Assembly: GCA_020634615.1 (NCBI GenBank)
Contig: JACKBI010000019.1
Coordinates: 52,911-116,910, forward strand
DNA: 64,000 nt
Origin: Anaerolineales bacterium
Lineage (GTDB): Bacteria; Chloroflexota; Anaerolineae; JAAEKA01
Direction of reading: 5' to 3'
Position numbers and translations under genes: made by a program. Each line of letters opens with the position of its first letter. The stretch's first letter is position 1. The notes under the pieces were generated by a model, which saw only the letters and a program-made list of their open reading frames with translations, had not been told where the DNA came from and searched no databases. Positions 1,603 to 44,765 of the stretch are shown piece after piece.

Positions 1603-1624
1603 CTTCATACAAGACTCACTGAAG

Positions 1625-1657
1625 AAACGCCGGATCTGTTCGCAGGTCCGGCGTTTT
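1625..1657 (+). terminator. Intrinsic terminator
   Basis: AAACGCCGGATCTG-TTCG-CAGGTCCGGCGTTTT hairpin with T tail, 22 nt after the stop. Confidence 0.75.
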
Positions 1658-1680
1658 GCGTTGGTGCTGAAACCTGCAAG

Positions 1681-1710
1681 AAGGCGGACTTTTTCGACAA
1701 AGTCGAACTG
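1681..1710. repeat. REP-like palindrome, GACTTTTT..AAAGTC family (degenerate copy)
   Basis: AAGGCGGACTTTTTCGACAAAGTCGAACTG resembles the copies at 4029 and 22782. Confidence 0.5.
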
Positions 1711-1914
1711 CGCGGACCGCTGACATTTCAATCGCAACCCACGTTGCTGCGCAAGCCTGGAAGTATTCATGCGACAATTCTTGACAACCAATGTCAAGCT
1801 TTCCCGGCAGACAACCTCGCATTTGTCGGTTACAATCATAAGAACTATTCGTTTGCCAACTGATGGTGGGCACAATCATAACGCCACAGCGGTCTGGGAT
1901 GGAAGGACCGTCAC

Positions 1915-2562
1915 ATGATTTCATTGTTCCTGGTCGATCATAGCCTACCGGTCAGCAAAAGTGTCAGGTCTTCCCTGGAAGCGTTGCCTGGATGCCGGCT
2001 GATTGGCCACGAATTAGCTGTTCCCGATGCACTGAACGGCATAAGGCAGCGGAGGCCAGACGTAGCGGTGATCAGCGTCGGTTCCGACTTCCCGACTGCG
2101 GTGGAAACAAGCCGTCGCGTTCGGACGGAAGAGCCGTCTGCCAGGGTGATGCTGATTGCTTCTACACCGACTTCAAAGCAACTCGTGCGTGCGTTGGAGG
2201 CGGGCGTTCACGGCATTGTTACCAATCCTGCCGATCTGATGGTATTGGCAGCGGCCGTTCGGGCGGTGTGCGCCGGTGTCACCTATCTTAGTCAGGAAGC
2301 GACCGAAATCATGGTCAACGACTATCTTCGGCGAAAGGCCCGCAACAGCCGGAAGACCCAGTTCGGCCGGCTGAGCGGCCGGGAAAGGGAGGTGCTCCAA
2401 CGATTGACCAGCGGCGCGTCGACGTCCGACATAGCACACGCGTTGAACCTGTCGCCCAAGACGGTCGATACCTACCGGCGACGGGCCATGGTCAAGCTCG
2501 AGGTGACAACCGTAGCGGCGCTCGTCAAGGTGGCGATTGCCAACGAAGTCACGGCGTCGTAA
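1915..2562 (+). CDS. NarL/FixJ-family response regulator (LuxR HTH) with a degenerate receiver domain
   Basis: C-terminal LSGREREVLQRL..GASTSDIA..LNLSPKTVDTYRRRAMVKL LuxR HTH. The N-terminal receiver-like region lacks the phospho-Asp and the Lys. Confidence 0.9.
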   Translation: MISLFLVDHSLPVSKSVRSSLEALPGCRLIGHELAVPDALNGIRQRRPDVAVISVGSDFPTAVETSRRVRTEEPSARVMLIASTPTSKQLVRALEAGVHGIVTNPADLMVLAAAVRAVCAGVTYLSQEATEIMVNDYLRRKARNSRKTQFGRLSGREREVLQRLTSGASTSDIAHALNLSPKTVDTYRRRAMVKLEVTTVAALVKVAIANEVTAS

Positions 2563-2671
2563 TGAGAGTTGGTAGCGACCAGCGCCCGGCACAGGGCGCT
2601 GCTGGTTGAACAGGCGGCACTGAAGTCGCAACTGAATTTTGGAGTTCACAGAATCAAGAAGGAGAGGGACC

Positions 2672-3952
2672 ATGTCATCCAAGAGACCTGTTCCGCGACG
2701 AACCACCAGGCTGGCGCTTGCGCTAGCTTCGGTTCTGGTGCTCGTCATAGTTTTCGCCGGCGTCGTCAGTGCGCTGACAGCCGGCAATGTCGATGGCGTC
2801 TGGGGAGATCCGCCCGGAACGAATCCCCAGGAGTTTCGCTGGTGCTACGCACCGGACAACACGGGCGCGCCGGCTGGCGATCCGACAAGCTGTAGCACCT
2901 CCAATGCCGGCATCCAGAACGGGCCTAATAGCACATTGACCGACGAAAACCAGGTTCGCTACGGTGACCCAGCAGTAGGCAGCGGCAGCGCCAACCGCAG
3001 CGGCTTCGGCTTCAACGGCAACAACTCCGTAGGCGTCGTGGCCGCCGACACGCCGTTCTATCTCGGCCGGTTCACGCACTACAATCGGCCGATTTACGCC
3101 GACCCCGTCCTGACTGACATTAGCATCGATGTTACGGTGGGTGGCATTCTGTGTGACGATAACAGCGTGCCGGCTGAAGGCTCGACCCAGACGTTCACGT
3201 ATGATGTGACGCTGGAGGAGACCAACAATAATCCTGACAACTGGCCAAATGATACCTGCCCATACGGCGAGACAGTGCCGTACAACAATCCCTACGGAGG
3301 GTGCAACGACCGCGTCACCATCAGCCAGGTGCCTGACACCGAGTTCACTTGTCCTGAGGGTGTGCGCACCGTCCAGATCCTGGGCTTCATCCCCGGCGCG
3401 GGCTGCCATCTGACATACAACCCGCCGACATCTTCTGCTTTCGTGACGGCCGAAAGCTCGCAGAACGAGGCATGCCTTTGGGCGCGCATCTCCGATCCCA
3501 CCACGCCATTGGCGGTGACGCTGGCGTCGTTCGAAGCGACCGGCCAGACCGACCGGGTGATGATCACATGGGAGACGGTCAGCGAATTGCAGAACGCCGG
3601 CTTCAACCTCTATCGTAGCGCGAACAACTACCAAGTTGGCGAGCGCGTCAACGCGGAGTTGATCCCGTCCCAGGCCCCCGGCAGCGCGCAAGGCTCTGCC
3701 TACCAGTTCGAAGATCTCGACGTAACGCCGGGCCAGACCTACTGGTACTCGCTGGAGGATGTCGATCTAAGCGGCGGCACGGCGTTGCATGGACCGGTCT
3801 CCGCAACCGTGTTGACGCCGACGGCGGTTACCCTCGGCGACCTAAGCGCGGCCAGTGCTGCGAGCCCCAGCCTGCTTATCGCGCTTGCTGCGGCTGTCTT
3901 GGGTGTCGTCGTCTTTGGGGCCTTTGCCCTGCGCCAGAGACGAAGCATCTGA
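2672..3952 (+). CDS. Secreted/surface protein with THxN (choice-of-anchor K-like) domain, Ig-like PLAVTL domain and PTAVT-TM-basic tail
   Basis: AAGGAGAGG SD before ATG 2672, N-terminal signal/TM, FYLGRFTHYNRPI motif. The last 148 aa are homologous to the end of the first gene. Confidence 0.85.
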   Translation: MSSKRPVPRRTTRLALALASVLVLVIVFAGVVSALTAGNVDGVWGDPPGTNPQEFRWCYAPDNTGAPAGDPTSCSTSNAGIQNGPNSTLTDENQVRYGDPAVGSGSANRSGFGFNGNNSVGVVAADTPFYLGRFTHYNRPIYADPVLTDISIDVTVGGILCDDNSVPAEGSTQTFTYDVTLEETNNNPDNWPNDTCPYGETVPYNNPYGGCNDRVTISQVPDTEFTCPEGVRTVQILGFIPGAGCHLTYNPPTSSAFVTAESSQNEACLWARISDPTTPLAVTLASFEATGQTDRVMITWETVSELQNAGFNLYRSANNYQVGERVNAELIPSQAPGSAQGSAYQFEDLDVTPGQTYWYSLEDVDLSGGTALHGPVSATVLTPTAVTLGDLSAASAASPSLLIALAAAVLGVVVFGAFALRQRRSI

Positions 3953-13397: not shown

Positions 13398-15881
13398 ATG
13401 TCCGCGAGCAACGATGCTCCCTCGACCGACCCGACCCGCCGGCTGCGGCTGGAAATCCACGGCGCGGTGCAAGGGGTCGGCTTTCGCCCGTTCGTCTACC
13501 GACTGGCCACGGAGCTGGCGCTCGCCGGCTGGGTGATCAACAACAGCCAGGGGGTGTTCATCGAGGTGGAAGGATCGGAGCAGCGCGTGCAGAGGTTTCT
13601 GGAACGTCTGCCGCTCGAGACACCGCCGCGCGCCATCGTCCACTCGCTGGACAAAGAATGGCTGGAACCGGTCAGCTACGACCGTTTTGAGATCCGTCAC
13701 AGCGAGGAAGCAGGCCAAAAGACAGCGCTGGTTCTTCCCGACATCGCCACTTGCCCTGACTGCCTGGCCGAGGTGCTGGACTCCACCGACCGCCGTCATG
13801 GCTACCCGTTCACCAACTGCACCAACTGCGGGCCACGCTTTAGCATCATCCAGGCGCTGCCCTACGACCGCCCCAACACCACCATGCGCCAGTTCGTCAT
13901 GTGCCCGGTCTGTCAGGCTGAATATGACGATCCGCGCGACCGCCGCTTCCATGCTCAGCCGAGCGCGTGCCCGGTGTGTGGGCCGCGGGTTGTGGGGTGG
14001 GGGGTGGGGCGTGGGGCGTGGGGGCTGGGGGTTGGAGAGAACGATCCGATCCGTACGGCGGCTGATGCTTTGCTTGCCGGACAGATTGTAGCGGTCAAGG
14101 GATTGGGTGGATTTCATTTGATGGTGGATGCGGGGAACACCGACGCTATCGAACGACTACGGGGGCGCAAACCGCGGCGGGATAAGCCGTTTGCGCTCAT
14201 GGTGCGCGATTTGGATGCGGCGCAAAGGCTGTGCGTGGCGTCAGCGGAGGCGGAAGCGCTGCTGACATCTGCGGAGGCGCCGATTGTGTTGCTGCCTCGC
14301 CGGGATGACGCACCGGTGGCCGATGCCGTCGCGCCGGGAAATCCAACGCTGGGTGTGATGCTGCCTTACACGCCGTTGCATCATTTACTGTTGCAAGAAG
14401 TGGCACGGTCCGATACCGGCCACAACGGTGGGGAGATCGGCCACAGCATCGAGGCATTGGTGGCGACCAGCGGCAACCTGAGCGACGAGCCGATCTGCAC
14501 CGACGAGCACGAGGCGGTTGAGCGGCTGGGGCACATCGCCGACCTGTTCCTGGTACACGACCGGCCCATCGAGCGCCACGTGGATGACAGCGTGGCCTGG
14601 ATCGTGGAGGGCAAGGCGAGGCTGTTGCGGCGGGCGCGCGGTTTCGCGCCGCTGCCGGTGCTGCTGCACCAGCCTGCGCCGGTGATCCTGGCAGTCGGGG
14701 CGCACTTGAAGAACACGGTCGCGTTGAGCGTCGGCCGCCAGGTCTTCATCAGTCAGCACATCGGCGACCTCGAAACGCCCGAATCGCTGGCCGCCTTCGA
14801 ACGTGTCATCGCCGACTTCCTACGGCTGTACGAGGCAGAACCGGTCGTTATCGCGCACGATATGCACCCGGAGTATCTGTCGACGAACTGGGCGGAGGAG
14901 AGAGAAGGAAGGGAAAAGAGGGAAAGAAGGGAAAGAGCGGAAAGTCAACTAGTTCAGATGCAGAAACACCCGGATGGCGAAACCGCCTCGCCAGTTTTTC
15001 CCTCTTTTCCTTCCTTTCCCTTATTTCCTTCTCTGCTCCCCGTCCAGCACCACCACGCGCATTTGGCCGCCTGCCTTGCCGAGCATGGCGTTGACGGGCC
15101 GGCGCTGGGGGTGACCTGGGACGGGACAGGCTACGGGCTGGATGGGACGATCTGGGGCGGCGAGTTTTTGCTGGGTGACGCGCGCGAGTTTCAACGGGTG
15201 GCGCACCTGCGGCCCTTCCGACTGCCCGGCGGCGATGCAGCTGTCAAGGAGCCGCGGCGGGTGGCGTTTGCCATGCTGTGGGAGTTGTACGGCGACGAGG
15301 TGTTGGACTGGGACTTCGTGGCGCCGGTGCGTGCGCTGCGCCGCGATGAGCGCACCCTGCTGTCGCAGATGCTGGCGCGTGGCCTGAACGCGCCGATCAC
15401 TACCAGCGCAGGACGTCTGTTCGACGGCGTAGCCGCGCTGATCGGTTTGCACCAGCAGGTGACGTTTGAAGGCCAGGCCGCGATGGCGCTGGAGTTCGCC
15501 GCCGATGCCCGCGAAAACAGCGCCTATAACATCCATCTTGCCGCCTCAGCCAGTCAACCCTCAACGTTGACCCTCGACTGGCAACCGATGGTCGAGGAGA
15601 TCCTGAGCGACTTGCGGCGCGGTGTGTCCTCTGGTATGATGGCTGCACGCTTCCACAACGCGTTGGTGCGGGCGATTGTCGCCACAGCGCAAGAGATCGG
15701 CGAAGAGCGCGTCGCCCTGACCGGTGGATGCTTCCAGAATCGCCTGCTGGTCGAACGCACTGCCCGACGGCTGCGTACTGCCGGCTTTGAAGTTCTGCTC
15801 CACCGCCAGGTTCCACCCAACGACGGCGGCATCAGTCTTGGGCAGATCGCGGTGGCGGCGGCGCAGTTCAGCGAACAGTAA
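13398..15881 (+). CDS. hypF: Carbamoyltransferase HypF, with low-complexity in-frame insertions
   Basis: Acylphosphatase VQGVGFRPFVY, zinc fingers CPDC/CTNCGPR/CPVC, VKGLGGFHL, VQHHHAH, PPNDGGISLGQ. Confidence 0.95.
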   Translation: MSASNDAPSTDPTRRLRLEIHGAVQGVGFRPFVYRLATELALAGWVINNSQGVFIEVEGSEQRVQRFLERLPLETPPRAIVHSLDKEWLEPVSYDRFEIRHSEEAGQKTALVLPDIATCPDCLAEVLDSTDRRHGYPFTNCTNCGPRFSIIQALPYDRPNTTMRQFVMCPVCQAEYDDPRDRRFHAQPSACPVCGPRVVGWGVGRGAWGLGVGENDPIRTAADALLAGQIVAVKGLGGFHLMVDAGNTDAIERLRGRKPRRDKPFALMVRDLDAAQRLCVASAEAEALLTSAEAPIVLLPRRDDAPVADAVAPGNPTLGVMLPYTPLHHLLLQEVARSDTGHNGGEIGHSIEALVATSGNLSDEPICTDEHEAVERLGHIADLFLVHDRPIERHVDDSVAWIVEGKARLLRRARGFAPLPVLLHQPAPVILAVGAHLKNTVALSVGRQVFISQHIGDLETPESLAAFERVIADFLRLYEAEPVVIAHDMHPEYLSTNWAEEREGREKRERRERAESQLVQMQKHPDGETASPVFPSFPSFPLFPSLLPVQHHHAHLAACLAEHGVDGPALGVTWDGTGYGLDGTIWGGEFLLGDAREFQRVAHLRPFRLPGGDAAVKEPRRVAFAMLWELYGDEVLDWDFVAPVRALRRDERTLLSQMLARGLNAPITTSAGRLFDGVAALIGLHQQVTFEGQAAMALEFAADARENSAYNIHLAASASQPSTLTLDWQPMVEEILSDLRRGVSSGMMAARFHNALVRAIVATAQEIGEERVALTGGCFQNRLLVERTARRLRTAGFEVLLHRQVPPNDGGISLGQIAVAAAQFSEQ

Positions 15882-15974
15882 TCAGTTGTCAGTCATCAGT
15901 AATCAGTACACGGTGCTCCCATCGCCGATTACTGGAAACTGATTACTGACTACTGGAAACCGATTACCGATAAC
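15876..15974. repeat. Inverted array of heptamer-like repeats (TAATCAG / CTGATTA)
   Basis: The left arm CAGTAATCAGT.. pairs with the right arm ACTGATTACTG..; a related element lies at 23701..23765. Confidence 0.6.
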
Positions 15975-15986
15975 GAGGTCTGGAAA

Positions 15987-16241
15987 ATGTGTCTCGGTGT
16001 TCCCGGAAAAGTAGTTGAGATCAGCGAAGACCCGCTGGGCATGACCATGGGCAAGGTCGATTTCAGCGGCATCGTCAAGGAGGTCTGCCTGGCGTACGTG
16101 CCGGAGGTGACGCTGGGCGACTACGTGGTGGTGCACGTCGGCTTTGCCATCAGCGTCGTGGACGAGGACGAAGCGCAGGAGGTGTTCGAGTTTCTGCGCC
16201 AAATGGATGAACTGGCAGAGCTGGAGATCGCGCAGAATTAG
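15987..16241 (+). CDS. hypC: Hydrogenase assembly chaperone HypC
   Basis: MCLGVPGKV, VGDYV-like LGDYVVVHVGFAI. Confidence 0.95.
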   Translation: MCLGVPGKVVEISEDPLGMTMGKVDFSGIVKEVCLAYVPEVTLGDYVVVHVGFAISVVDEDEAQEVFEFLRQMDELAELEIAQN

Positions 16242-34444: not shown

Positions 34445-37400
34445 TCAGTTCCACTGGTTGGCGGCAAGGATGATATCGGTGACGTCGATCTCATCGTTGC
34501 CGTTCAGATCGTAATTGTAGAGATATTGCGGCTGGCCAAGAGTCGCTCCCCAGCGGCCGGCGACAAGCTGGACGTCAACGATGTTGACGCTGCCCGTGCA
34601 GTTGACATCAGGCACTGCAAGGTTGACGACCACCTCGAGCGGCGTCAGCACGCCCAATGTGTCGGTCACTTCTCCTGTCACCATGATTGTTCCACAGGCC
34701 GTCAGCGTAGGTGACACGACGCTGCTGAAAGATACTGTTTCGTTGCTCCCAATGGTCACGTCGCCGGACCAAAGAACCTGGCGGGAGTCGGGATCGTAGA
34801 TTGGGCCCGACCCGGTTGAGGCGGCCATCCAGGTCGGCGCGCCGAGTTCGGATGGCAGGGTAAGCGTAACCTGGGTTCCCACGTAGGGAGAGGTGGCATA
34901 GTTCGAGAGGGTTGCGGTTACCGTGATCGGCATCCCAGGTGGAATCCAGTACCGTTGGGCATCCAGAGTCGCGTTGATATTCAACGGTGAAACGTTCACC
35001 TCAGTATTCACTTCAAGCTGTAAAGCAGACGACAGATCACTGGTGATCGCCGCTGGTACGGTCACGTTGTAAAGACCTGGCGCCAATCCCGTGTTGACGG
35101 CCAGAGAGAACGTCTTGACCACCGAGTCGGCTTCCGGGCTTCGCACATCGTTCAACTGCCAGGTCAAGGTATCGCCGTTATCGACAGCACCATTGGGGTC
35201 GACGACTGTCACCAGATCCTGCGGATAATCGGCAGTCAGAATCACATTAGGTGCGATGAATATGCTGGTGTTGGAAACAGTGACGGTGTAGTCAAGAGTT
35301 TCGCCCGGATCTGCGGTGGTTTCGCTAACTTCCATGGTCGAATCTGAGAAGTCAGCAGTGGGCAACCGCAGTTTCAGCGCCGGATCACCGAAGAAGATCA
35401 TCGAGTCGATCAAATCGTGATAGGCGATGCTATTGTCAAAAAAGTAATACTTGCTGGCATTGATCACGTCGCCCGCCCGCGGCACTCGATCCTGGAACAT
35501 CGCCTTATGCAGGCCCTGATCGAGCGTCGACAACGCTGCGCCGATGTGCAAACCACTGGGCGAGTAATCGGCGATGGCACCTCGCCCCGGTGTCAGTAAC
35601 ATGGTCTCCCCCAAGCTTTGCCAATTGTTGGCCCAAAGCACAAAGTATCCCGTCCAGCACGCGTTGTGCATCACCAATGGCATTTGACTGGATGGTGCCA
35701 GTGTAGCCGGGTCATTGATATTGAACATGGATACCGATCCCCAGCGGGCAGTGGATCCGTGGCCAAACCATTGCAGGAAGATCGCTCCATTGTTGAATTC
35801 GTTTTTGATGGCTGTTCGCACATCACCGCCCGAAGGATAGCTCGGATCGGGACAATTGGCCGGTGGCGCATCGTAATAAACCGTGTCGCTGGTGTAAGTT
35901 CCAGGCAGCCAGTTTTGACGAATGTTGTTGGACAACGCATGAAAATTGCCTGCCGGGTCCGTGCAGTTGTCGGCAACATATACAGACCGGGTTTGCCAGT
36001 CGCCGTCAGGCGTCGTTGCCGGATTCTCATAGGCAAGAATCTTGTTGACAACCGCAGTTACGTCAGCAGCATTATTGGCCGAAATACGGCCAATAGCCAT
36101 CTCAGGCAGGATATCGCTGTCACCGTCGACGCTGACGAATCGCGAGTCGGCCGGGACCTCTCCGATCCACGGATCAACATGAACCAGATAAGGCGGGATC
36201 AATATCCGCAGTGTCGTCGCAATCTCACCGCGGTAAGCTGGATACCCATCACCGACCAGCAGAACATAGCCTGGTTGGCCTTGCCAGTTGTGATATGCGT
36301 TGCTCAGAAAACTGCGAATAGCCTCCGGATCGATAAACCCGTAGCTGAACTCGTCGTAAACATCTTGTAACTTGACTTTTGCAACGTTAAACCCTTCAGC
36401 CGTACGATGATCAAGCAATGGTTGAATCGCTACTCCTAATTCGTCGCCCACAGAGGTTGTGCCTGCCGCCGTGCGCTCAGTGCCAATGATTGCGATGTAG
36501 TCGAAACTGTTGCTTGGCGCTGCCCAGTCGGACGGTGTATCGACCTCGATAGCACTGGGTGCCAGATAAGCGTCTTCCGAGGCCATGAAATAGGAGGATG
36601 AAGCGGTTGGCTCGCGCCAATACAACTTGTACATCCCGCCCGCGTCTTGCGAGCCGACTCCAGTTAAGAGGACTGGTGCTTCCGGAGCGGCTACATCTAG
36701 CACTGTGACAAGGCCAGTCGTAAAATCAGTGGCGATGATGTCAGTAGTGCTGGTGGTTAAACCGGCGATGTAGAGCGAATCATTGTCGGCGCGCGCGAGG
36801 GCCGGATAGGTCAGATCCACCCAGTCGGGAGACACCCAGTACGCAGAGATACCCGGCAATGCAGACTTGTCGGCAATCAGATGAATCTTGTTGACTGGAG
36901 CATCCAGCCAGGATGCCGGCAGCGTCTCGGCGATGCTGTAATCAACGCTGCCGTCCCATTGATAGCGATTCACGAAATGGTTGTTGAGTTGGACGTCAAC
37001 TGACTGATCGGGATTGAAGCCCGGATCGTTGTTTCCGCCGTGAACGAGAACAGACAGGTCAATGGAGCCTGTCGAAGTAACCGGATCGTTCAATGTCAAG
37101 TCATAAGTCCGGGTAACCAACGGCGTGCTGGTGTTCGCGTAAAGTTGCGTGTCAAAGAAATGATCCGCGCTTTTTGGGCGTTCATACAGCGTTCGATAAT
37201 CTACGTTCACTTCCACGTGAGTCGTCTGCGAAATCGTCGATGCAGCTGCTGGCGTAAACGGAGCGGTTACGTTACGCGTCTCCATACGGGCAGCGAATGC
37301 CGGAGCGCTCTCGACAAAGTAGTACACGTTGTAGTCCTGAAACCGCCCCAAGTCGTAAGGAACTGCATAGAAGACTACAAGGTCTCCCGGGTCGAAGCTG

Positions 37401-38227
37401 TTGTCACCAGCGCCAGTGACCAGGATATCGATCGGCTGGCCCTTATAGAAGACTGCAAAGTCGTTGGGATCCGAGCCTCCAGGGCCCAGGTTCACGCCGC
37501 CGGCTGCGAGATCAGCGTAGGTCAAGCGATAGACGCCTCGCTGCGTTGTATGCAGACGCAACCGTGCGCCCGTCGCGCCTTCGGGAACAGCCTGCGCTGT
37601 CAAATCGGGACTGACGACCGGCTGATCGGCTTGGCCAGCGTTGGGATGTAGCTGAACCGTGATGTTCAGCACCGGGTGATAGCGCAACTGGTGGGTGACA
37701 GGGTTATATTGGAAGGGATAGACACGAATCGGCAGCAGGCGCTGGTTACCCTGCTGCACCGGCTCGCCGGCAACGACTGGCGATGATGGATAAAAAGCAT
37801 TGACCGAGTAAATGTCGGAACTGGGCTGGTCCACCAGTGGCACGGAGGTTGGAAGATTAGCCGGATCATCCAGCCAATTCTGTGGCTGATTCAGATTCAG
37901 GTTGGCCACAGGCGCAGCTGAAATCAGCACTGTTTGCGGGAGCTGCTGTTGCTCTGGCGACTCATAGCTCAGTTCCCAAGTACTGTCAACAGGTATGAGA
38001 ACCGAATAACCCTTAACAGGCAACTGTGGCGCGCCGGGTACATCATTCAGTGCAGCATCCCCAACAGAAACCCCGGTGGCCGTGATTTCATAGTCCGGTG
38101 TCAGAATCTGGCGAAAGTCTGCCACGCCGTCCCCTTGTTCCGCGGATGCAGGAACAACGGTCGCCGTGACAATCACCACTACAATCAAGAGAAGACTTTT
38201 CCAAGCTCGTGTTCGCATCACTATCAC
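34445..38227 (-). CDS. Secreted C25 (gingipain/PorU-like) cysteine peptidase with propeptide, DUF11-like domains and C-terminal dockerin-like repeat
   Basis: Signal peptide; PGAPQLP..PFQYNP propeptide; YVLLVGDG, GRIS, FGHG and NAC catalytic motifs; DVNCTGSVNIVD..DLNGNDEIDVTD. Confidence 0.85.
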   Translation of the reverse strand: MIVMRTRAWKSLLLIVVVIVTATVVPASAEQGDGVADFRQILTPDYEITATGVSVGDAALNDVPGAPQLPVKGYSVLIPVDSTWELSYESPEQQQLPQTVLISAAPVANLNLNQPQNWLDDPANLPTSVPLVDQPSSDIYSVNAFYPSSPVVAGEPVQQGNQRLLPIRVYPFQYNPVTHQLRYHPVLNITVQLHPNAGQADQPVVSPDLTAQAVPEGATGARLRLHTTQRGVYRLTYADLAAGGVNLGPGGSDPNDFAVFYKGQPIDILVTGAGDNSFDPGDLVVFYAVPYDLGRFQDYNVYYFVESAPAFAARMETRNVTAPFTPAAASTISQTTHVEVNVDYRTLYERPKSADHFFDTQLYANTSTPLVTRTYDLTLNDPVTSTGSIDLSVLVHGGNNDPGFNPDQSVDVQLNNHFVNRYQWDGSVDYSIAETLPASWLDAPVNKIHLIADKSALPGISAYWVSPDWVDLTYPALARADNDSLYIAGLTTSTTDIIATDFTTGLVTVLDVAAPEAPVLLTGVGSQDAGGMYKLYWREPTASSSYFMASEDAYLAPSAIEVDTPSDWAAPSNSFDYIAIIGTERTAAGTTSVGDELGVAIQPLLDHRTAEGFNVAKVKLQDVYDEFSYGFIDPEAIRSFLSNAYHNWQGQPGYVLLVGDGYPAYRGEIATTLRILIPPYLVHVDPWIGEVPADSRFVSVDGDSDILPEMAIGRISANNAADVTAVVNKILAYENPATTPDGDWQTRSVYVADNCTDPAGNFHALSNNIRQNWLPGTYTSDTVYYDAPPANCPDPSYPSGGDVRTAIKNEFNNGAIFLQWFGHGSTARWGSVSMFNINDPATLAPSSQMPLVMHNACWTGYFVLWANNWQSLGETMLLTPGRGAIADYSPSGLHIGAALSTLDQGLHKAMFQDRVPRAGDVINASKYYFFDNSIAYHDLIDSMIFFGDPALKLRLPTADFSDSTMEVSETTADPGETLDYTVTVSNTSIFIAPNVILTADYPQDLVTVVDPNGAVDNGDTLTWQLNDVRSPEADSVVKTFSLAVNTGLAPGLYNVTVPAAITSDLSSALQLEVNTEVNVSPLNINATLDAQRYWIPPGMPITVTATLSNYATSPYVGTQVTLTLPSELGAPTWMAASTGSGPIYDPDSRQVLWSGDVTIGSNETVSFSSVVSPTLTACGTIMVTGEVTDTLGVLTPLEVVVNLAVPDVNCTGSVNIVDVQLVAGRWGATLGQPQYLYNYDLNGNDEIDVTDIILAANQWN

Positions 38228-38257
38228 CCTTCTCGGATCACATTATTCTTGTCCAAT

Positions 38258-38286
38258 ATCATACATTCGACGCAATTGTATCACAA
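38258..38286 (-). promoter_or_regulatory. Sigma70-type promoter of the C25 gene
   Basis: TTGTGA-17 nt-TATGAT on the minus strand. Confidence 0.55.
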
Positions 38287-38289
38287 ATC

Positions 38290-38310
38290 AATGTAACAAT
38301 AAGTTACATT
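38290..38310. promoter_or_regulatory. Palindromic transcription-factor site candidate
   Basis: AATGTAAC-AATAA-GTTACATT just upstream of the -35. Confidence 0.5.
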
Positions 38311-38336
38311 CGTATGAATTACATTCACAGCACGCG

Positions 38337-38376
38337 AAATTGCAGCGCTTCTTCGAGCGCTGCAATTTTCTTTTTC
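38337..38376. terminator. Terminator-like hairpin
   Basis: AAATTGCAGCGCT-TCTTCG-AGCGCTGCAATTT followed by TCTTTTT on the + strand. Confidence 0.65.
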
Positions 38377-38569
38377 AGGTCATCGGCAAATCACCAATCC
38401 TGGCCACAAACAAACCCTTGCAGCAACCACGGATTGTGGCCGGGCTTTAGATCACGCAAACCTACTGGATTCCATCACCAGAACGCCAACCAGATGTCCT
38501 GAGTTTTGGCAAAACACGCCCTTGCACTGAAAAACTCGTTTGCTGAAGGCTCCCGAGCGACTGAATGAC

Positions 38570-38764
38570 TTACAGACAAGTAGCGGTCGTGGTGCTTCCA
38601 GACGATGCAAGAGGACCAAGCAGTCCGGATGGTGAACCATGCGGCCCGGGGCCACCCTGCGCTTCAGCCATGAGCGGGCGTTCGAACGCTACCGAAGGTT
38701 CCTCCCAGGCCAAACGGGACGGCTGAACCGACTGTGTGGAACGATTGACATTAACGGTATTCAT
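38570..38764 (-). CDS. 64-aa putative RiPP precursor peptide
   Basis: AAGGAG SD before ATG 38764, 28 nt after the rSAM stop. Has a WEEPSV leader-like motif and a G/P/S/T-rich tail ending TCL. Confidence 0.7.
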   Translation of the reverse strand: MNTVNVNRSTQSVQPSRLAWEEPSVAFERPLMAEAQGGPGPHGSPSGLLGPLASSGSTTTATCL

Positions 38765-38792
38765 CTTGTACTCCTTGTGAAAGATTGCTTTG

Positions 38793-40004
38793 TCACGCAA
38801 CCAGGCTCATCTGCGGCCGTGGCTCAGCTACGAAACTATCGACCAACACGATCGGCTGCCCATTGGTCGGCTCTACTAAGGTGATCTCTCCGCGCCTCAA
38901 GCGAGCCTGCAACGGAGTTTCCGGTATCATTTGATTCGGGTGAATCTGAGCAAAGCGGGCCTGTGCTTGCGAACACGCCAGGGAATGTCCGCCATACAAG
39001 TCACCATGTTCCTTCCATGCCAGCCCCGAACACCGGCCCTCACAATAGCGGTTGATCGGACAGACATGGCACTCCGGCAGATTTTTCATCGTGTGCCGGC
39101 TGCGCAGTTGCTTGAAAATACCGCCGTTGTTCCAAATATCAATGAACCGGCGTTGACGAATATTGCCGCCGGGTATGCGCAGTTCAATGCACGGCAGCAC
39201 ATCACCATACGGGCTGATGAGGCAGGAACTCAAGCTCACCGAACATGTTCTGGTGGCCGGAGTCACGGTGCGCAAATCAAATGCCATTTGGTCCTGCCCA
39301 ATCAGGTCCGTGATTTGTTCGCGATCCAACTGATGCTCGGTCGCCTTGCTGCTGCCATCGTCGGCGGTTGAAATCTTGAACCCCTGCTCATAATCGACGC
39401 CCAACTCCGCAACCAGTTCAACCATCTGCTCGCGCTCAGCCAGGTTGAGGTCCATCATCAACGAAAACAGCTTGACACGCACACCGCGCTCTTGAAGCAA
39501 CTTGACGCCACGCACAACCCGACGCAGCGTGTCCTTGCTGCCGGCAATCGCATCGAAGGTCTTATCAGTTGCGCCCAGCAAGCTGATGTCCACTCGCAAC
39601 GGTGACAATGCCGCGATGCGATCGGCTTTCTCCGGTGTAATCAGGGTGCCGTTGGTCTTCAAGCTGAGGGCAAAGCCCAACGTGCGTGCTCGCTCAGCGA
39701 TCTCAAAAAAGTCGCGCCGCGACAGGATTTCGCCACCAGTCAACGACAAATACAGCGTGCCCGCCTCCGCAAGCTGATCCAGGACATCAAAACACTCAGC
39801 GGTGCTGAGTTCTGGTTGAGCAAGCGAGACATTGTAACACATTATGCAATCAAGGTTGCATTTATGCGTCAGTTCCCAAAGCACCGTAACCGGCAAAGCG
39901 TCCTGCTTGAAGCGCATCAATAGCGCTTCATAAGGATCGGCGGGCTGATCGGGCAGCGCACAACCGGCGAAATCCCGTACGAGAGGCTGCAATTCCTGTG
40001 TCAT
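38793..40004 (-). CDS. Radical SAM/SPASM domain maturase
   Basis: CNLDCIMC (CxxxCxxC), LTGGE, KTNG, and SPASM Cys set C..C..GDVLPC..CHVC..YCEGRC..C. Confidence 0.92.
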   Translation of the reverse strand: MTQELQPLVRDFAGCALPDQPADPYEALLMRFKQDALPVTVLWELTHKCNLDCIMCYNVSLAQPELSTAECFDVLDQLAEAGTLYLSLTGGEILSRRDFFEIAERARTLGFALSLKTNGTLITPEKADRIAALSPLRVDISLLGATDKTFDAIAGSKDTLRRVVRGVKLLQERGVRVKLFSLMMDLNLAEREQMVELVAELGVDYEQGFKISTADDGSSKATEHQLDREQITDLIGQDQMAFDLRTVTPATRTCSVSLSSCLISPYGDVLPCIELRIPGGNIRQRRFIDIWNNGGIFKQLRSRHTMKNLPECHVCPINRYCEGRCSGLAWKEHGDLYGGHSLACSQAQARFAQIHPNQMIPETPLQARLRRGEITLVEPTNGQPIVLVDSFVAEPRPQMSLVA

Positions 40005-40190
40005 CACCAGAGTCCGTTGTCAAATCCTGTCAATACAATAATGAGCTTTGCGGCATCGAATGCATTGGTGATCATAGCACTTTTGCCCATGTCCACTTCA
40101 ACCACCCAATGGCCCCTCGTAAAAATACGTGACCGCTTTGTCATCATGAAGGTTGTTGCCGAAACACCTGCCTTACCTATAGACCAAGGT

Positions 40191-40219
40191 ATTCTATCAT
40201 GAAGGTGTAACTGAGTCAA
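40191..40219 (-). promoter_or_regulatory. Strong internal sigma70 promoter upstream of the rSAM gene
   Basis: TTGACT-17 nt-TAGAAT with TGn extended -10. Confidence 0.65.
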
Positions 40220-40236
40220 TCTCCTGTCACCGATGT

Positions 40237-41964
40237 TCATTGGGTCACCTTTGGTGCTTGCCAGCGCTCCAGGTTGCCAGCTTCAACTGAATCATCGCGA
40301 ATGTACAGCGGTGCGTTCTGCAGCAAATAATCGATCTGGACTGGATTAGGCAGGTATCTCTGGCGGAAAACTTCATTCTTTACTACAGCAGTATTGTACG
40401 ACACGCCATACGTCCGTTCCTGATAGTCCAGCCACCAATCGAATTCGTTCAGTTCATGCGGCAGTAAGGGAGCGAAAATGTCTGGTTGCTTTGCAAGGCT
40501 GGTATCAACATCAAATTTATTGTGTCCAATCTGGTCGTTGCAGCACACCGGAGGACGTCTGGCGATGACAGGATCCGACTTACCCAACAGGTCGATGCTG
40601 TAGCGATGACTGAAATACGGGACGCCGCCGGCTGCAATAACTGCCACCCGGGCATCTGGTGCCGTGTAGCGATTGATCAACACACCAGCTACCGTTGTAT
40701 ACGCCAGGCCGCCGTTTTGTGAATATATCTTGCCGGGATAGAACACACCGGTACTGGCCAACGTTGCTATCGACAATGTCGCCAGGAGCAGAAACGAACT
40801 GGCCTGGTTCCAGCGGGCACCGAACTGAACTGCAGCGACGGCAGCAAGTACCAGAATCACCGGTACCTCGTGTGCAAGAAAGCGCGAGAATTCAAAAATG
40901 TCACCGCCAACCCGGAGGCTGTATCCCATAGCGATCACAACGCCCGCGAGCAGCAACCACCAGCGCCTTTGCGCTGCCAGGAGAGCGCCAATGCCTGCCA
41001 GGGTCAAAGCGGCAGCATAGTTGCCCACGAAAAAACGCACATATCCCACACCAATGCGGGGCAGCCCCTTGATGCCGTAGACCTTTAGATAGTACGTGTT
41101 CGGCAGCCAGTCGCCGTAATAACCGCGCCGCCACAGCAAATGAGCGAGCGGCAAGAGCAGGGAGATACCAAGAAACACCGCCGTCTTCTTGCGATCCTTG
41201 TTCACACCAATGGCCAGAAGCGCCGTACCAAACCAGATATGCAGAGCGTCGCTGCGCACCAGAGGAAGCAGTCCCATCAGCAGGTAGGTTGTCACCCGTG
41301 GCTGGCCGCTCTGCTCCTCGTCCAGCAATCGCACGACAACAGCCAGGAAGATGACCGTCAACAGAGTCGTTTCAAAGCCGTTGACCGACCAGAATAACAA
41401 GTCGCCACACAGGGCCAGAGTCAGCAGTACGGCCGGTAAAGCCAGGCCGGGCTTCGGCAGAAAGCGTCGCAGCAACCGTTCTGTCAGCAGCAACACCGCG
41501 AATGCCAGTCCGAGATTGATCAGCTTGACCGCCAGCGATGTCGTAGCATCTGGCAGCGGAAGCAGATGCACGCCAGCCATGACCAGTGTCCACAGGAAGT
41601 TACTGTATCCTTCAACGCGCTCGCCCGGGTTCCAGACCAGCCCGTGGCCCTCCGCCAGGTTGCGCGCGTAGCGCATCGAGATCATCTGGTCGTCGTCGAG
41701 CCAGAAGTAGCGCACGCCATCGATGCTGATGCTCGCTTGCCGAACGGCAAGGACTGTCATGGCAGCTACCAGACCAAAAGCCAGCAGCCGCCACAGAATC
41801 GGTGGACGATTCGCCAACCACTCCAGCACCGTTTCGAAGCGGCGGACCGATGCAATAGGAGTGACCAAACGCTGTTCTGTTGTCAAGGTGCTTTGCTCAG
41901 GCTCAGGACTCTGACCACTCCAACAGATCCCGCTCCACCAAGTCTTCGACAAAACCAGCGACAC
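40237..41964 (-). CDS. GT-C membrane glycosyltransferase, AftB-like (start uncertain)
   Basis: DDDQMISMRYARNLAEGHGLVWNPGERVEGYSNFLW motif and many TM segments. Confidence 0.8.
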   Translation of the reverse strand: MSLVLSKTWWSGICWSGQSPEPEQSTLTTEQRLVTPIASVRRFETVLEWLANRPPILWRLLAFGLVAAMTVLAVRQASISIDGVRYFWLDDDQMISMRYARNLAEGHGLVWNPGERVEGYSNFLWTLVMAGVHLLPLPDATTSLAVKLINLGLAFAVLLLTERLLRRFLPKPGLALPAVLLTLALCGDLLFWSVNGFETTLLTVIFLAVVVRLLDEEQSGQPRVTTYLLMGLLPLVRSDALHIWFGTALLAIGVNKDRKKTAVFLGISLLLPLAHLLWRRGYYGDWLPNTYYLKVYGIKGLPRIGVGYVRFFVGNYAAALTLAGIGALLAAQRRWWLLLAGVVIAMGYSLRVGGDIFEFSRFLAHEVPVILVLAAVAAVQFGARWNQASSFLLLATLSIATLASTGVFYPGKIYSQNGGLAYTTVAGVLINRYTAPDARVAVIAAGGVPYFSHRYSIDLLGKSDPVIARRPPVCCNDQIGHNKFDVDTSLAKQPDIFAPLLPHELNEFDWWLDYQERTYGVSYNTAVVKNEVFRQRYLPNPVQIDYLLQNAPLYIRDDSVEAGNLERWQAPKVTQ

Positions 41965-42187
41965 TCTGCCGGGCGTGCGGTAACTCCACTTCGAACTCCT
42001 GCGTCAGGATAACTGCGATATCCTCCAGCGAGTTTGTCCCGTTTGCCAGTTGCCAGATGCGCGAGCCGACAGGGTTGAGCATGCGCACCATGTTTTCCGC
42101 TGGACTGATGACCACCGCGTCGCTGCCGAAGACGCGCGAAGCGGTCGATGAGTGATGAACGGGTCTGCGAAGATCAATGTCATTCAT
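41903..42187 (-). CDS. Stand-alone PqqD-family RiPP recognition element (RRE)
   Basis: LNPVGSRIWQLANG..LEDIA..L..EFEV....ARQSV..FVEDL.ERDLL pattern, 94 aa. Confidence 0.88.
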   Translation of the reverse strand: MNDIDLRRPVHHSSTASRVFGSDAVVISPAENMVRMLNPVGSRIWQLANGTNSLEDIAVILTQEFEVELPHARQSVAGFVEDLVERDLLEWSES

Positions 42188-42192
42188 GCAAG

Positions 42193-43668
42193 TTACTGCC
42201 CCTTGAATGCAAGCATGACCTGGATGGTCCGTAGCATAATACGAATGTCCAGCAACGGGCTCATGTGGTTGACGTAGTACAGGTCATACTCCAACTTGAT
42301 TCGCGCATCATCGTCCGAGCTGCCGTAGCGGTAGCTCACCTGCGCCCAGCCGGTGATACCGGGCCGCACCGCATGGCGAGCCCGATAGAAAGGAATCGAC
42401 TGCGCCAGATGTTCGACAAATTCGGGACGCTCCGGTCGCGGTCCAATCAGACTCATCTCGCCCTTGAGAACGTTGATAAACTGAGGTAACTCATCCAGCC
42501 GCGTCTTACGCAGGAACCGCCCCACGGGAGTGATACGATCGTCGTTGGTAGTTGCCCAAACCGCGCCCGTCTCTGCTTCAGCATCCGGAATCATCGAGCG
42601 GAATTTGTAAACCAGGAAGGGTTTTCCGCCCTTTCCGACCCGATCCTGCTGATAGAACAATGGTCCGGGCGAGTTGAAATGATTGCCGATGGCAACAAAC
42701 ATCGCGACAACTGCCAGTACAATCATTCCAAATGCGGCAACGACTACGTCAAACAATCGCTTGACAGCAGTGTAAACGCGTTCTGATGGACGATCACCCG
42801 ACGGAAGCGCCAGATACAGGTCACGGCCAACGTGTTGAACGGGCACCCGGCCAGTGAGGTTTTCATACACGCTTGACATGGTCGTCACGTGGACGCCCAT
42901 TTCCCGGCAGCGCAACAATTCGTCGAACAGATCGTCGGCAATTGCATGCCGCTGCGTGATGGCCAGAATCAATTCATCGATATGCAGCGCGCTTGCCATC
43001 GGCACCAGCACATCGCGGCCACCCAATACCGGCACGCCGACAACCTGACCACCGGTCAATTCGGGGTTATCATCGATGAACCCCACCAGTTCGTAACCGG
43101 TGCCGCGGAAAGGGTTGGCATCGTGGGTAACATTGCCCAACGACTCGACCAATGTGCGCCCTGCCCAGCCAGCGCCGATAACCAGAGCCCGCTGGCGAAA
43201 CTGCGGCTGAACAAACAACTGGGCGTAGATAACACGCCACGAAACCAGTCCTCCGAGAACCAGCCCGGCAAAAGCAAACACCAGCGTTCGACTTTGAAGC
43301 GGTGGCGTCAGCCAGGGAATCAGCGTGTAGACCAGCACCGTGGTCAGCGCAGCCAGACCGATATTGCGAACGATATTTGTCGTGCTGGCAGAACGAGCCA
43401 GATTGTAGACGTCAAAAATGAAAGCGCTGACACACCAAACGATGGTCAGTGTAATATACCACTTGTAGGGGCTGACAATGGTCGCAAGACTGCGCCCTTC
43501 TTCTGTGGCCAGCAACCAAGGAATTGCCAACGCCAAATTGATAATCAGGACATCCACCAGGAAAAGAAATATCTTGCGCTCGGAGGTTCGTATCCTCAGT
43601 CGCGGCTTATTGAGCCAGTGTCGCTGGACCTGGCTACGCTGCTTGGCAGCGGTTGTTTCCAGTTTCAC
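42193..43668 (-). CDS. Polyprenyl-phosphate glycosylphosphotransferase (WcaJ-like priming sugar transferase)
   Basis: Four N-terminal TMs, Rossmann-like IGAGWAG, KRLFD, YKFRSM, RKTRLDELPQFINVLKGEMSLIGPRPERP, RPGITGWAQV. Confidence 0.93.
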   Translation of the reverse strand: MKLETTAAKQRSQVQRHWLNKPRLRIRTSERKIFLFLVDVLIINLALAIPWLLATEEGRSLATIVSPYKWYITLTIVWCVSAFIFDVYNLARSASTTNIVRNIGLAALTTVLVYTLIPWLTPPLQSRTLVFAFAGLVLGGLVSWRVIYAQLFVQPQFRQRALVIGAGWAGRTLVESLGNVTHDANPFRGTGYELVGFIDDNPELTGGQVVGVPVLGGRDVLVPMASALHIDELILAITQRHAIADDLFDELLRCREMGVHVTTMSSVYENLTGRVPVQHVGRDLYLALPSGDRPSERVYTAVKRLFDVVVAAFGMIVLAVVAMFVAIGNHFNSPGPLFYQQDRVGKGGKPFLVYKFRSMIPDAEAETGAVWATTNDDRITPVGRFLRKTRLDELPQFINVLKGEMSLIGPRPERPEFVEHLAQSIPFYRARHAVRPGITGWAQVSYRYGSSDDDARIKLEYDLYYVNHMSPLLDIRIMLRTIQVMLAFKGQ

Positions 43669-44765
43669 AGCAATCCCTCCGCCTTCCCCAGCCCAAGATA
43701 CATGGCGTTCAGCGATGCCTGCTCCAGTCCCCGTTGCTCATGGTACCAGCCTCTTCCTGCCTCACCCATCTGCTGGAGGCGCCCGCCATCAGAAAGTGCA
43801 GCTTGCCACGCGTCAGCCAGCGCGCGCGCATCGCCAGCGGGCACAACCCATCCGGTGACCCCATGTTGAACATACTCGCCCAACGCACCAACGTCTGTCA
43901 CGATAACCGGCTTTCCGAAGTAATAGGCGGATGCAATCAAAGCTGACTGGCTTGCATCGAGGTAAGGCAAGATAACTACGCCGCAACGACTAAACAGATC
44001 TATGGCCTCTGCATCATCGATACGGTGATTGCGGATTTCCACCGTTGCCGTATGTGGGGCTTCGGTGTCCAGGCCACCGGAGCCGGCCACGATGAGATTC
44101 ACGCCGATCTCACGCATTGGCAACATGCGCTCCGCATCGATCAATTGTGCAACACCCTTGTAGCGTTCGAGACGGCCAAAAAAGAGACCCCAGTTACCGT
44201 AGTCTACTTCAACTATACCAAGGCTGGCAAATCCCTCAAAACTGAGAAAAAGATGCAGCAAAGGCAGGTAACTGACGCGCCCTGCATCACAGCCGCCTGC
44301 AATCAATCGTCGGGCATAAACCTGTCCATGGACCAACAGATGATCGACTGATCGAATGATTGCGCGATTCCAAACTTTGATCAGTGAGCTGTAGCCCACG
44401 CCCAGGTGCGGGTCCAGATCGTGAAGCGTATGCACCACCGGAATGCCTTGCTTCCGCAGCCAGCGTACCAGCGGGACGTTCCACGCATGCACACCCGTGA
44501 TGTGAACCACATCGGGATCCAGCGAGCGGATCGATTTTGTCACCTGCCGGTAGCGGTCGCCGCGTAGTCCTTCGAACGAGAAGCCGGTGTTGTGTGTTGT
44601 GATCGGTGTGATGACTTGCACCGCCGGACTGTAGCGATCCCTGGCAAACGTCGTTGCGGTCACCAGCACCGTGTCATGCCCCTGCCCGGCCATGCGATTC
44701 GCCAGATCGGCGGTGTATTGGTGCATGCCAAAAGTGGGGGACAGCAGAACGTAGACGATACGCAT
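43665..44765 (-). CDS. GT4-family glycosyltransferase
   Basis: HTLHDLDPH, FFGRLERYKG, PYLDASQSA, GKPVIVTDVGALGE. GTGA overlap with the next gene. Confidence 0.9.
   Translation of the reverse strand: MRIVYVLLSPTFGMHQYTADLANRMAGQGHDTVLVTATTFARDRYSPAVQVITPITTHNTGFSFEGLRGDRYRQVTKSIRSLDPDVVHITGVHAWNVPLVRWLRKQGIPVVHTLHDLDPHLGVGYSSLIKVWNRAIIRSVDHLLVHGQVYARRLIAGGCDAGRVSYLPLLHLFLSFEGFASLGIVEVDYGNWGLFFGRLERYKGVAQLIDAERMLPMREIGVNLIVAGSGGLDTEAPHTATVEIRNHRIDDAEAIDLFSRCGVVILPYLDASQSALIASAYYFGKPVIVTDVGALGEYVQHGVTGWVVPAGDARALADAWQAALSDGGRLQQMGEAGRGWYHEQRGLEQASLNAMYLGLGKAEGLL

Follow-up and report, generated by a model that had tools for sequence, protein, structure and literature searches.

Peptides synthesized on ribosomes and then post-translationally modified (RiPPs) of the lasso and linear polyphosphorylated peptide (LPP; LppA/K/B/S/D/N) families depend on a discrete RiPP recognition element (RRE), which binds a [Y/W]xxPx[L/V/I/F/A] motif in the precursor, as crystallographic, pull-down, and NMR work has established (Popov et al., Nat Commun 2026, PMC13381572). 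The aromatic residue of this leader motif sets RRE specificity, and the RRE presents the leader to a kinase and a leader peptidase; the gene clusters lie within capsular polysaccharide loci, where an HprK-like kinase and a nucleoside triphosphate (NTP) transferase are used (PMC13381572). Here, we examined a 64,000-nucleotide stretch of the genome of an Anaerolineales bacterium of the Chloroflexota (contig JACKBI010000019.1; hereafter, the window), in which an initial annotation had proposed that a small minus-strand open reading frame (ORF) at 38570..38764 encodes an RRE-dependent precursor peptide. Our results make it likely that this 64-amino-acid peptide is the precursor (A) peptide of a previously undescribed RRE-dependent maturation pathway that involves a radical S-adenosylmethionine (rSAM) enzyme, and they place it directly beside a giant secreted peptidase of the C25 family. 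Literature searches returned no description of an rSAM + PqqD + C25 system or of the peptide family, and the words “radical,” “SPASM,” “C25,” and “gingipain” appear nowhere in the LPP paper (PMC13381572).

The peptide gene comprises 64 codons and a stop, and its translation, MNTVNVNRSTQSVQPSRLAWEEPSVAFERPLMAEAQGGPGPHGSPSGLLGPLASSGSTTTATCL*, is exactly the one first quoted. Its ATG, at 38764, lies 28 nucleotides past the stop codon of the rSAM gene (38793..40007) and follows a Shine-Dalgarno-like AAGGAG (38771..38776, minus strand), which had also been reported correctly, save that its spacer is 6 rather than 7 nucleotides long, a difference of counting. The 18 kb around the gene hold 117 ORFs of at least 50 codons; thus, an open frame alone is weak evidence, and it is conservation that argues for a gene. 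A word-indexed search over 5.8 billion proteins returned 14 relatives of 62 to 70 residues and one frameshifted copy, while a profile search over 1.84 billion cluster representatives (50% identity) returned 79 matches, all but one of which were 54 to 104 residues long (mostly 54 to 73), for about 78 clusters (50% identity) of peptide relatives in public data. The remaining match, a 929-residue repeat protein hit nine times by the profile (P0020), was discarded as low-complexity and unrelated. Six-frame searches detected the peptide in 19 of 61 related genomes. Within the class, 46 of the 401 genomes searched have a match, with the frame open every time, and in a 400-genome sample of the whole phylum, there were no matches outside the class. 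At this level of sequence similarity, the pathway is confined to a single Chloroflexota class (Caldilineae/Anaerolineae metagenome-assembled genomes).

The pattern of change among these relatives is that of a coding sequence. Between the window peptide gene and its 66%-identical orthologue in a metagenomic locus (L001), differences at codon positions 1, 2, and 3 number 19, 8, and 44, amounting to 34 synonymous and 20 non-synonymous codon changes. Across more than 140 relatives, the frame stays open and the length is kept down to about 30% identity, with indels of whole codons, and the position between the rSAM and C25 genes is retained in related loci. The many spurious ORFs of similar size in the region would also suit a chance frame in G+C-rich DNA overlying a conserved non-coding or regulatory element; however, the retention of frame and length, the third-position bias of the substitutions, the ribosome-binding site, and the lack of an Rfam match make such a reading almost certainly wrong. 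On this comparative evidence, the ORF is a real, conserved gene under purifying selection. The identical peptide sequence occurs on 65 public contigs, none of which gives it a functional name; Pfam and NCBIfam scans of the peptide returned no match, and it contains neither a signal peptide nor a transmembrane segment nor any known sorting motif. Separately, one 104-residue protein called on a 51.8-kb ENA contig (P0014) is identical to the window peptide over 33 residues, after which the frame is lost; the gene behind it is a frameshifted or misassembled copy of the window gene.

The signature of the family is an ungapped block of 17 residues, W-x-x-P-x-[IVL]-x-x-E-R-x-L-x-x-x-A-Q, which in the window peptide extends from W20 to Q36 (W20-E-E-P23-S-V25-A-F-E28-R29-P-L31-M-A-E-A35-Q36; 38657..38707, minus strand). 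Over 143 non-redundant relatives, the first position is W in 136 and F in 7, and the following conserved positions are kept in 143 (P), 138 (I, V, or L), 136 (E), 132 (R), 139 (L), 136 (A), and 126 (Q) peptides. The suggestion that WEEPSV matches the aromatic-x-x-P-x-aliphatic motif of RRE-bound leaders is thereby borne out, with an aromatic residue and the proline in all 143 and an aliphatic residue in 138. A candidate partner is encoded upstream of the peptide gene, in the form of a stand-alone PqqD-family RRE of 94 amino acids (41903..42187, minus strand; PF05402, E 1e-14). Its NCBIfam matches (ScmD, lasso_PqqD_Bac, PqqD, and GeoRSP PqqD) all fall under their cut-offs, and the nearest PDB chains, at weak E-values of 0.001 to 0.3, are TbiB1 (5v1u), 9x8z_B, TfuB1 (6jx3), and 9x90_B. 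The nearest solved relatives of the window PqqD are thus lasso and LPP RREs, which, together with the conservation of the motif, supports the original proposal of an RRE-dependent precursor; the 17-residue block is presumed to be the element that PqqD binds.

Judging from the alignments, the leader probably extends to the invariant A35-Q36, in line with the core start near AQ/GG put forward in the initial annotation. A cut after Q36 would place W20 at -17, close to Y-16 in LppA and W-15 in PbaA; the canonical lasso leader spacing is Y-17/P-14/L-12. The likeness to LPP thus covers a small precursor, a [Y/W]xxPx[aliphatic] motif, and a discrete PqqD-type RRE, but the window leader has W instead of Y and an ERxLxxxAQ block where the LPP leaders have VLxHQxIxFET, and its host belongs to another phylum. 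The split B1/B2 lasso systems (paeninodin-type, TbiB1, TfuB1) likewise share a W/YxxPxL-type leader, their B1 proteins are the nearest to the window PqqD, and lasso_PqqD_Bac is among its best model matches. They differ in that the window peptide lacks both the Thr at -2 and a conserved core Asp or Glu at positions 7 to 9 for a macrolactam, and no cyclase (Asn-synthetase-like C) or transglutaminase-like B2 was found in the window locus or among recurrent neighbors, a comparison that did not extend to a genome-wide search. As an observation apart, about 17 of the 143 leaders carry a Cys at the x of W-E-D-P-C-[IL], inside the RRE-binding motif (for example, L023, L024, L026, L032, L036, L066, L078, P0042, and P0047). 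These leaders are confined to peptides that also have a C-terminal Cys, and the additional residue could form a disulfide or serve as an iron ligand.

Beyond the leader, the core holds a second conserved island (the GPL island; G47-L-L-G-P-L-A-S-S55 in the window peptide, 38600..38626, minus strand), with the family consensus [FL]GP[LF]xxS. The family comprises two kinds of peptide, both of which have this island: one with a Cys among the last few residues, and one without Cys that ends 3 to 9 residues past the island. The island itself may be a recognition site for a kinase or a protease. The window peptide, ending ...TTATCL, belongs to the first kind (Cys63 codon, 38576..38578, minus strand). 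WxxP (with W or F) and Cys had both been expected to be conserved if the peptide were a substrate, and they are, in 143 and 117 of the 143 relatives, respectively; Cys is the last or penultimate residue in 88 of these 117 (75%). The position just before Cys varies, and Cys itself stands 1 to 15 residues from the GPL island, in most cases 7 to 12.

The presence of Cys follows that of the rSAM gene without exception. The Cys is present in every one of the 34 peptides whose gene lies next to an rSAM gene. Among the Cys-less peptides, 15 come with enough sequence upstream to judge, and none of them adjoins an rSAM gene; these have an HprK-like kinase or PqqD gene directly upstream instead. Ten Cys peptides without an adjacent rSAM gene belong to extra peptide-C25 pairs, and their genomes all hold the rSAM gene elsewhere. 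In genome-wide searches with the window rSAM as the query, exactly one orthologue was found in each of the 37 genomes with Cys peptides (37/37), and none was found in the nine genomes having only Cys-less peptides (0/9). In eight genomes with both types of locus, Cys occurs only in the rSAM-linked peptide. Because the Cys-less forms comprise several distinct sequence types across four families of the class, the pattern is not the outcome of a single inherited event. Since Cys and the rSAM gene covary in this way, the enzyme most likely acts on or through the C-terminal Cys, making Cys63 the presumed site of rSAM-dependent modification in the window peptide.

What the enzyme would do there can be narrowed in part. 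A thioether formed from the single near-terminal Cys was one of three chemistries suggested at the outset; the covariation upholds Cys-centered chemistry, and it favors the thioether indirectly, leaving a thioether at Cys63 plausible but unproven. The second suggestion, a His-Xaa-Ser or other three-residue cyclophane made by the rSAM enzyme on H42-G-S44, draws solely on the presence of HGS in the window peptide and its close relatives and deserves hardly any credence: relatives retaining the rSAM gene have R, Q, D, or N in place of His42 or lack the residue (for example, GIGPRNAPSG, GIGPQDMPSG, and GGPPDPGFAPQG), no aromatic residue is conserved in the core in the alignments of relatives, and Cys alone tracks the enzyme.

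The enzyme (38793..40007, minus strand; 404 amino acids; PF04055 and PF13186) has the rSAM motif CX3CX2C at C50/C54/C57, and eight Cys of its SPASM region (C255, C262, C273, C313, C316, C322, C326, and C345) are conserved in 33 orthologues. In CteB-type enzymes, an open iron site binds the substrate thiolate. The eight SPASM Cys of the window enzyme could ligate both auxiliary clusters fully, a pattern that speaks neither for nor against a thioether. PqqE and MftC are rSAM enzymes that need a separate RRE; the window enzyme also has no fused N-terminal RRE and would therefore need one, too. With an adjacent co-directional precursor, a PqqD-like RRE, and the CX3CX2C motif plus SPASM Cys, the locus has the general makeup of RRE-dependent rSAM RiPP systems. 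The best models for the enzyme are AhbD/NirJ, which match the N-terminal half only, followed by full-length matches to MftC (E 9e-37), StsB sactisynthase (E 6.6e-33), and PqqE (E 8e-33), and the scores lie far below the cut-offs (MftC, 127 vs 265; PqqE, 113.8 vs 381; StsB, 114 vs 625; AlbA, 71 vs 850; ScmE, 91 vs 400). The nearest solved structures (BlsE, PqqE, SkfB, and SuiB) are all distant, and the names attached to the orthologues, which form about 1200 clusters, are generic or clearly transferred.

The sactipeptides and ranthipeptides (AlbA, SkfB, CteB, PapB, NxxcB) are comparable in having an rSAM/SPASM maturase beside a small Cys-containing precursor, and the window enzyme is weakly similar to StsB over its full length and to SkfB. 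They differ in several respects: their thioether is known, whereas here the peptide has a single Cys at its extreme C-terminus instead of several, the RRE is separate instead of forming the N-terminal domain of the maturase, the enzyme scores under the cut-offs of all known maturases with its eight SPASM Cys all conserved, and the partner protease is a secreted C25 and not a C39, S8, or M16 enzyme. Another group, the SynChlorMet (Scm), HPr-rel-A, and GeoRSP systems, which are uncharacterized families defined by bioinformatics, likewise combines a PqqD-like protein, an HprK-related kinase, and an rSAM/SPASM enzyme, and weak best matches of our loci fall among its members (ScmD for PqqD, ScmC and HprK_rel_A/B for the kinases, ScmE and GeoRSP_rSAM for the rSAM enzyme). 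However, these scores are far under the cut-offs (ScmD, 33.7 vs 100; ScmE, as above), and the precursor matches no model; to our knowledge, coupling to a C25 peptidase is not part of the definitions of these families.

The resemblance to mycofactocin (MftA/B/C) and pyrroloquinoline quinone (PQQ; PqqA/D/E) biosynthesis invites a further reading, in which the peptide is the precursor of a redox cofactor made by an rSAM enzyme and a PqqD-type chaperone, followed by trimming and glycosylation. Those pathways, too, pair a separate PqqD-family chaperone with an RRE-less rSAM/SPASM enzyme that targets a residue at or near the peptide C-terminus; the full-length alignments with MftC and PqqE, the last or penultimate position of the presumed target in 75% of the Cys peptides, and the glycosyltransferases nearby, recalling MftF in mycofactocin clusters, are in keeping with such a product. 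Nevertheless, we consider it highly improbable, given that the scores are far below the equivalog cut-offs, the peptide has neither a GVY nor an E-x3-Y motif, and the locus contains no dependent dehydrogenases, no MftD/E or PqqB/C homologues, and no downstream cofactor-tailoring genes. In addition, the partner peptidase is secreted, and Cys-less, rSAM-less versions of the peptide persist with the same C25.

The pairing with this peptidase is the most constant feature of the peptide’s surroundings, and it had not been recognized in the initial annotation. We compared 63 loci with 66 peptide genes, scoring neighbors by tblastn and counting only those cases where the contig leaves room. Of 57 such cases for C25, 54 have its gene as the direct downstream neighbor on the same strand; a PqqD gene is found upstream in 38 of 49 cases and the rSAM gene immediately upstream in 34, so that an equivalent of the window ORF does accompany orthologous rSAM genes. 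An HprK-related kinase, with weak NCBIfam matches to HprK_rel_B, HprK_rel_A, and ScmC, is present in 31 loci. Further recurrent neighbors are a PF14907 nucleotidyltransferase, a sulfotransferase, GT1 and GT4 glycosyltransferases, a SIS-domain protein, and a Wzz/BY-kinase, while many apparent neighbor “families” are shadow ORFs on the opposite strand. The recurrent families include no exporter, S26/SpI peptidase, lasso cyclase, or B2 peptidase, and C25 is the only peptidase among the conserved neighbors.

In the window, the C25 gene (34445..38227, minus strand) encodes a secreted, gingipain/PorU-like cysteine peptidase of 1260 amino acids (PF01364, E 9e-74; PF08126, PF01345, PF00404) with a propeptide, a DUF11 domain, and a dockerin-like tail. 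The catalytic His823 and Cys857 are invariant in 40 of 40 aligned homologues, most of which have signal-peptide-like N-termini. Its nearest PDB entries are PorU (6za2) and RgpB, and it scores below the cut-offs of the PorU-type NCBIfam models (NF033707, 175.9 vs 420; NF052324, 185.8 vs 450), PorU being the sortase of the type IX secretion system (T9SS), whose genes were not searched for. In the pathway that we propose, this enzyme would be the dedicated processing or partner enzyme of the peptide.

A rival reading, which we regard as a tentative possibility, puts more weight on this pairing. In it, the matured peptide is a dedicated partner of the PorU-like C25 and not a free natural product, acting either as a substrate that is cut and passed, as by a sortase, to an acceptor on the cell surface or in exopolysaccharide, or as a cognate regulator or inhibitor of the protease. 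It overlaps with our preferred explanation and differs in the end use of the peptide, with the RRE, rSAM, and kinase steps being only preparatory. Peptide and C25 form the tightest unit of the locus; ten extra peptide-C25 pairs have arisen by duplication, with neither PqqD nor rSAM, and often come immediately behind a Wzz/BY-kinase gene; the loci sit within polysaccharide gene sets (GT4, priming transferase, Wzz, SIS); PorU, the T9SS sortase, is the closest solved relative of the C25 domain; and neither an exporter nor a typical RiPP protease is present. Conversely, the peptide lacks a signal peptide, a transmembrane segment, and any known sorting motif, C25 resembles PorU only weakly (E 1.5e-9) and falls short of the NCBIfam cut-offs, and the window’s genome contains a C25 paralogue without a peptide. 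A more specific version would make the peptide a dedicated substrate that a secreted PorU-like C25 transpeptidase joins to the cell surface or exopolysaccharide, with no antibiotic-like role. Once tailored under RRE guidance, by an rSAM cross-link at the C-terminal Cys and, in other lineages, by phosphorylation or glycosylation, the peptide would leave the cell together with the lipid-linked polysaccharide of the GT4 and priming-transferase genes, or be coupled to it, and C25 would cleave at one of the two invariant islands; taken jointly, these steps are distinctly improbable. If they did occur, the system would be a Chloroflexota counterpart of PorU-mediated attachment to anionic lipopolysaccharide (A-LPS) in type IX secretion, with a RiPP-like peptide as the linker or cap.

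Two observations concern these pairs and enzymes in other genomes. First, some extra peptide-C25 pairs without PqqD or rSAM (L074, L075, L079, and L081, in genomes of family f42) directly follow a Wzz/BY-kinase gene, and their peptides have an Arg-rich spacer in place of the usual Gly/Pro-rich one. Second, in six loci (L033, at 14038..16179; L028; L084; L085; L088; and L099), a gene of about 800 codons downstream of C25 encodes a secreted beta-helix-like protein that ends …GPTAVTL… and a hydrophobic tail. The same kind of C-terminal tail, PTAVT plus a transmembrane segment, was flagged at 1156..3952 of the window in the first reading, which raises the question of whether C25 enzymes process PTAVT-type tails.

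The third modification suggested initially, O-glycosylation of the SSGSTTT run, could be genus-specific at best. As a full alternative, the main modification would be O-glycosylation of the Ser/Thr run S54-T62 by the GT-C-like protein, the GT4 enzyme, and the priming transferase, with the rSAM enzyme minor or unrelated. The peptide gene does share an apparent operon with genes for a GT4 enzyme, a polyprenyl glycosylphosphotransferase, and a GT-C-like protein, and related LPP and paeninodin peptides, encoded in polysaccharide loci, receive phospho(glyco)syl tailoring. Still, we regard this as unlikely. The GT-C gene (six loci, all in the window’s genus) and the long Ser/Thr run are restricted to one genus, S55 being the sole family-wide Ser, whereas the peptide, PqqD, rSAM, and C25 are far more widespread; GT-C enzymes act outside the membrane, and there is no evident route for peptide export; and ordinary exopolysaccharide synthesis explains the GT4 and priming-transferase genes equally well.

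In the preferred reading, maturation by rSAM with the aid of PqqD, further tailoring differs between lineages. Most relatives of the window locus resemble LPP in having an HprK-like kinase and a PF14907-type NTP transferase, as well as in their polysaccharide-biosynthesis setting and a linear product made without a lasso cyclase, and kinase, nucleotidyltransferase, and sulfotransferase genes in related loci are shared with the lasso systems. The window locus, on the other hand, lacks the HprK-like kinase, the NTP transferase, the SpI/S26-like leader peptidase (LppS), and the MsbA-like exporter (LppD) of LPP, and it adds the rSAM/SPASM enzyme tied to the C-terminal Cys and the giant secreted C25. 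None of its eight genes encodes an HprK-like kinase, which is present elsewhere in the genome. The tailoring modules are most likely interchangeable, comprising rSAM with Cys, an HprK-like kinase with PF14907, a sulfotransferase, and, in this genus, the GT-C-like protein; S55 is a candidate kinase site in lineages with the HprK-like kinase.

We propose the following order of events. In a GT4 / priming transferase / PqqD / GT-C / rSAM / peptide operon, translation of the last gene would yield the peptide, and the stand-alone PqqD would bind the peptide’s leader through W20-x-x-P23-x-V25, much as lasso B1 proteins and LppB do with [Y/W]xxPx[LVI]. PqqD would then present the peptide to the RRE-less rSAM/SPASM enzyme, which would modify it at or through Cys63, most likely yielding an intramolecular thioether from Cys63 to a carbon of an upstream core residue, with other Cys-centered oxidation possible. 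In most relatives, the HprK-like kinase and PF14907 protein may phosphorylate a Ser, by analogy with LppK and the paeninodin kinases, and in the window’s genus, the GT-C-like membrane protein would take their place. The leader would end at A35-Q36, and the downstream-encoded C25 would serve as the processing or partner enzyme. The existence of the peptide, its conservation, its neighborhood, and its covariation with the rSAM gene are observations, while binding by the RRE, formation of a thioether, the end point of the leader, and the part played by C25 are predictions from sequence.

Several findings weigh against this scheme. First, the rSAM enzyme is under the cut-off of every characterized NCBIfam family, and the models that it matches best describe heme and cofactor enzymes and not thioether synthases; with all eight SPASM Cys conserved, there is also no sequence sign of a CteB-type open iron site. 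Second, no residue besides Cys distinguishes the rSAM-linked peptides, so that the cross-link partner cannot be named, and the spacing between the GPL island and Cys varies from 1 to 15 residues. Third, the mechanism does not explain how a signal-less peptide would reach a secreted C25, as no exporter or other transporter is conserved in the loci. Fourth, the window’s genome has a second C25 gene (G000 contig C4, ~35700..41900; locus L105, 9695..15892), with a gene for a PF14907 nucleotidyltransferase on its upstream side and one for an HprK-like kinase on its downstream side, and no family peptide or PqqD is detectable at that locus; the kinase and nucleotidyltransferase may thus serve C25 or the polysaccharide machinery and not the peptide.

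Finally, the peptide gene and C25 are set apart in the window’s genus by a terminator-like hairpin and an element resembling a promoter. The gap between the two genes is 340 nucleotides in the window and 14 to 100 nucleotides in other lineages. It contains a strong palindromic hairpin of 13 to 15 bp, AAAATTGCAGCGCT..AGCGCTGCAATTT (38336..38369, strand unassigned; found by scan and folding), and four related loci have a GC-rich hairpin followed by a T-run at the aligned position. Because of this hairpin and the T-runs, the operon in the window’s genus probably stops, or is attenuated, past the peptide gene, as happens after the precursor gene in many RiPP operons. Ahead of the C25 gene, an AT-rich, promoter-like TTGTGA-17-TATGAT (38258..38286, minus strand) agrees with the consensus at 9 of 12 positions, a consensus match only, and is partly kept in relatives (TTGTAAC ... 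TATAAT). An Rfam scan of the region between the peptide and C25 genes gave only a chance-level match (E 0.59).

The remaining genes of the locus lie upstream, and all eight of its ORFs are on the minus strand. The GT4-family glycosyltransferase (43665..44765; PF00534, PF13692, PF13579) and the polyprenyl glycosylphosphotransferase, or priming sugar transferase (42193..43668; PF02397; TIGR03025, 388.9 bits against a cut-off of 295.6), both recur in related loci. The GT-C-like polytopic membrane protein, which weakly matches NF041481 (AftB-type arabinofuranosyltransferase, E 8e-9), has its longest ORF at 40237..41964, and translation probably begins at the TTG at 41886. Between it and the rSAM gene lies an ORF of 78 codons (40004..40240), overlapping each neighbor by 4 nucleotides, which we weighed as a possible second precursor or small subunit and rejected for want of conservation: it has no family match, no tblastn match in any related locus, and no equivalent ORF in L018, and it is probably not a gene. 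At the same position, the metagenomic relative L001 has a gene for a 395-residue SGNH/AlgX-like protein of the O-acetyltransferase type (L001 2135..3322). The orthologous locus of a genus-mate, L020 (G002:C15 47001-67000), looks degraded, with a frameshift-split rSAM gene, a fragmented C25 gene, an interrupted GT-C gene, and a peptide whose C-terminus is out of frame (…GPLCLVWEHRLHAVC); this reflects either pseudogenization or an indel-rich assembly.

Taken as a new RRE-dependent rSAM RiPP with unusual coupling to a protease and to polysaccharide genes, and belonging to a family without a Pfam or NCBIfam model, the peptide defines a group of more than 140 precursors with about 1200 clusters of cognate rSAM enzymes. 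It leads to two predictions: that the rSAM enzyme acts on the single near-terminal Cys, and that W20, P23, and V25 are needed for PqqD binding. The leader-RRE logic of the lasso and LPP peptides, lately shown to be common to two Bacillota RiPP families, would here be joined, in another phylum, to radical SAM chemistry, and any known RiPP leader peptidase would be replaced by a giant secreted cysteine peptidase of the gingipain/PorU type inside exopolysaccharide loci. Caldilineae and Anaerolineae are abundant in activated sludge, and a peptide tied to a surface protease and to polysaccharide machinery could bear on the formation of flocs and biofilms.

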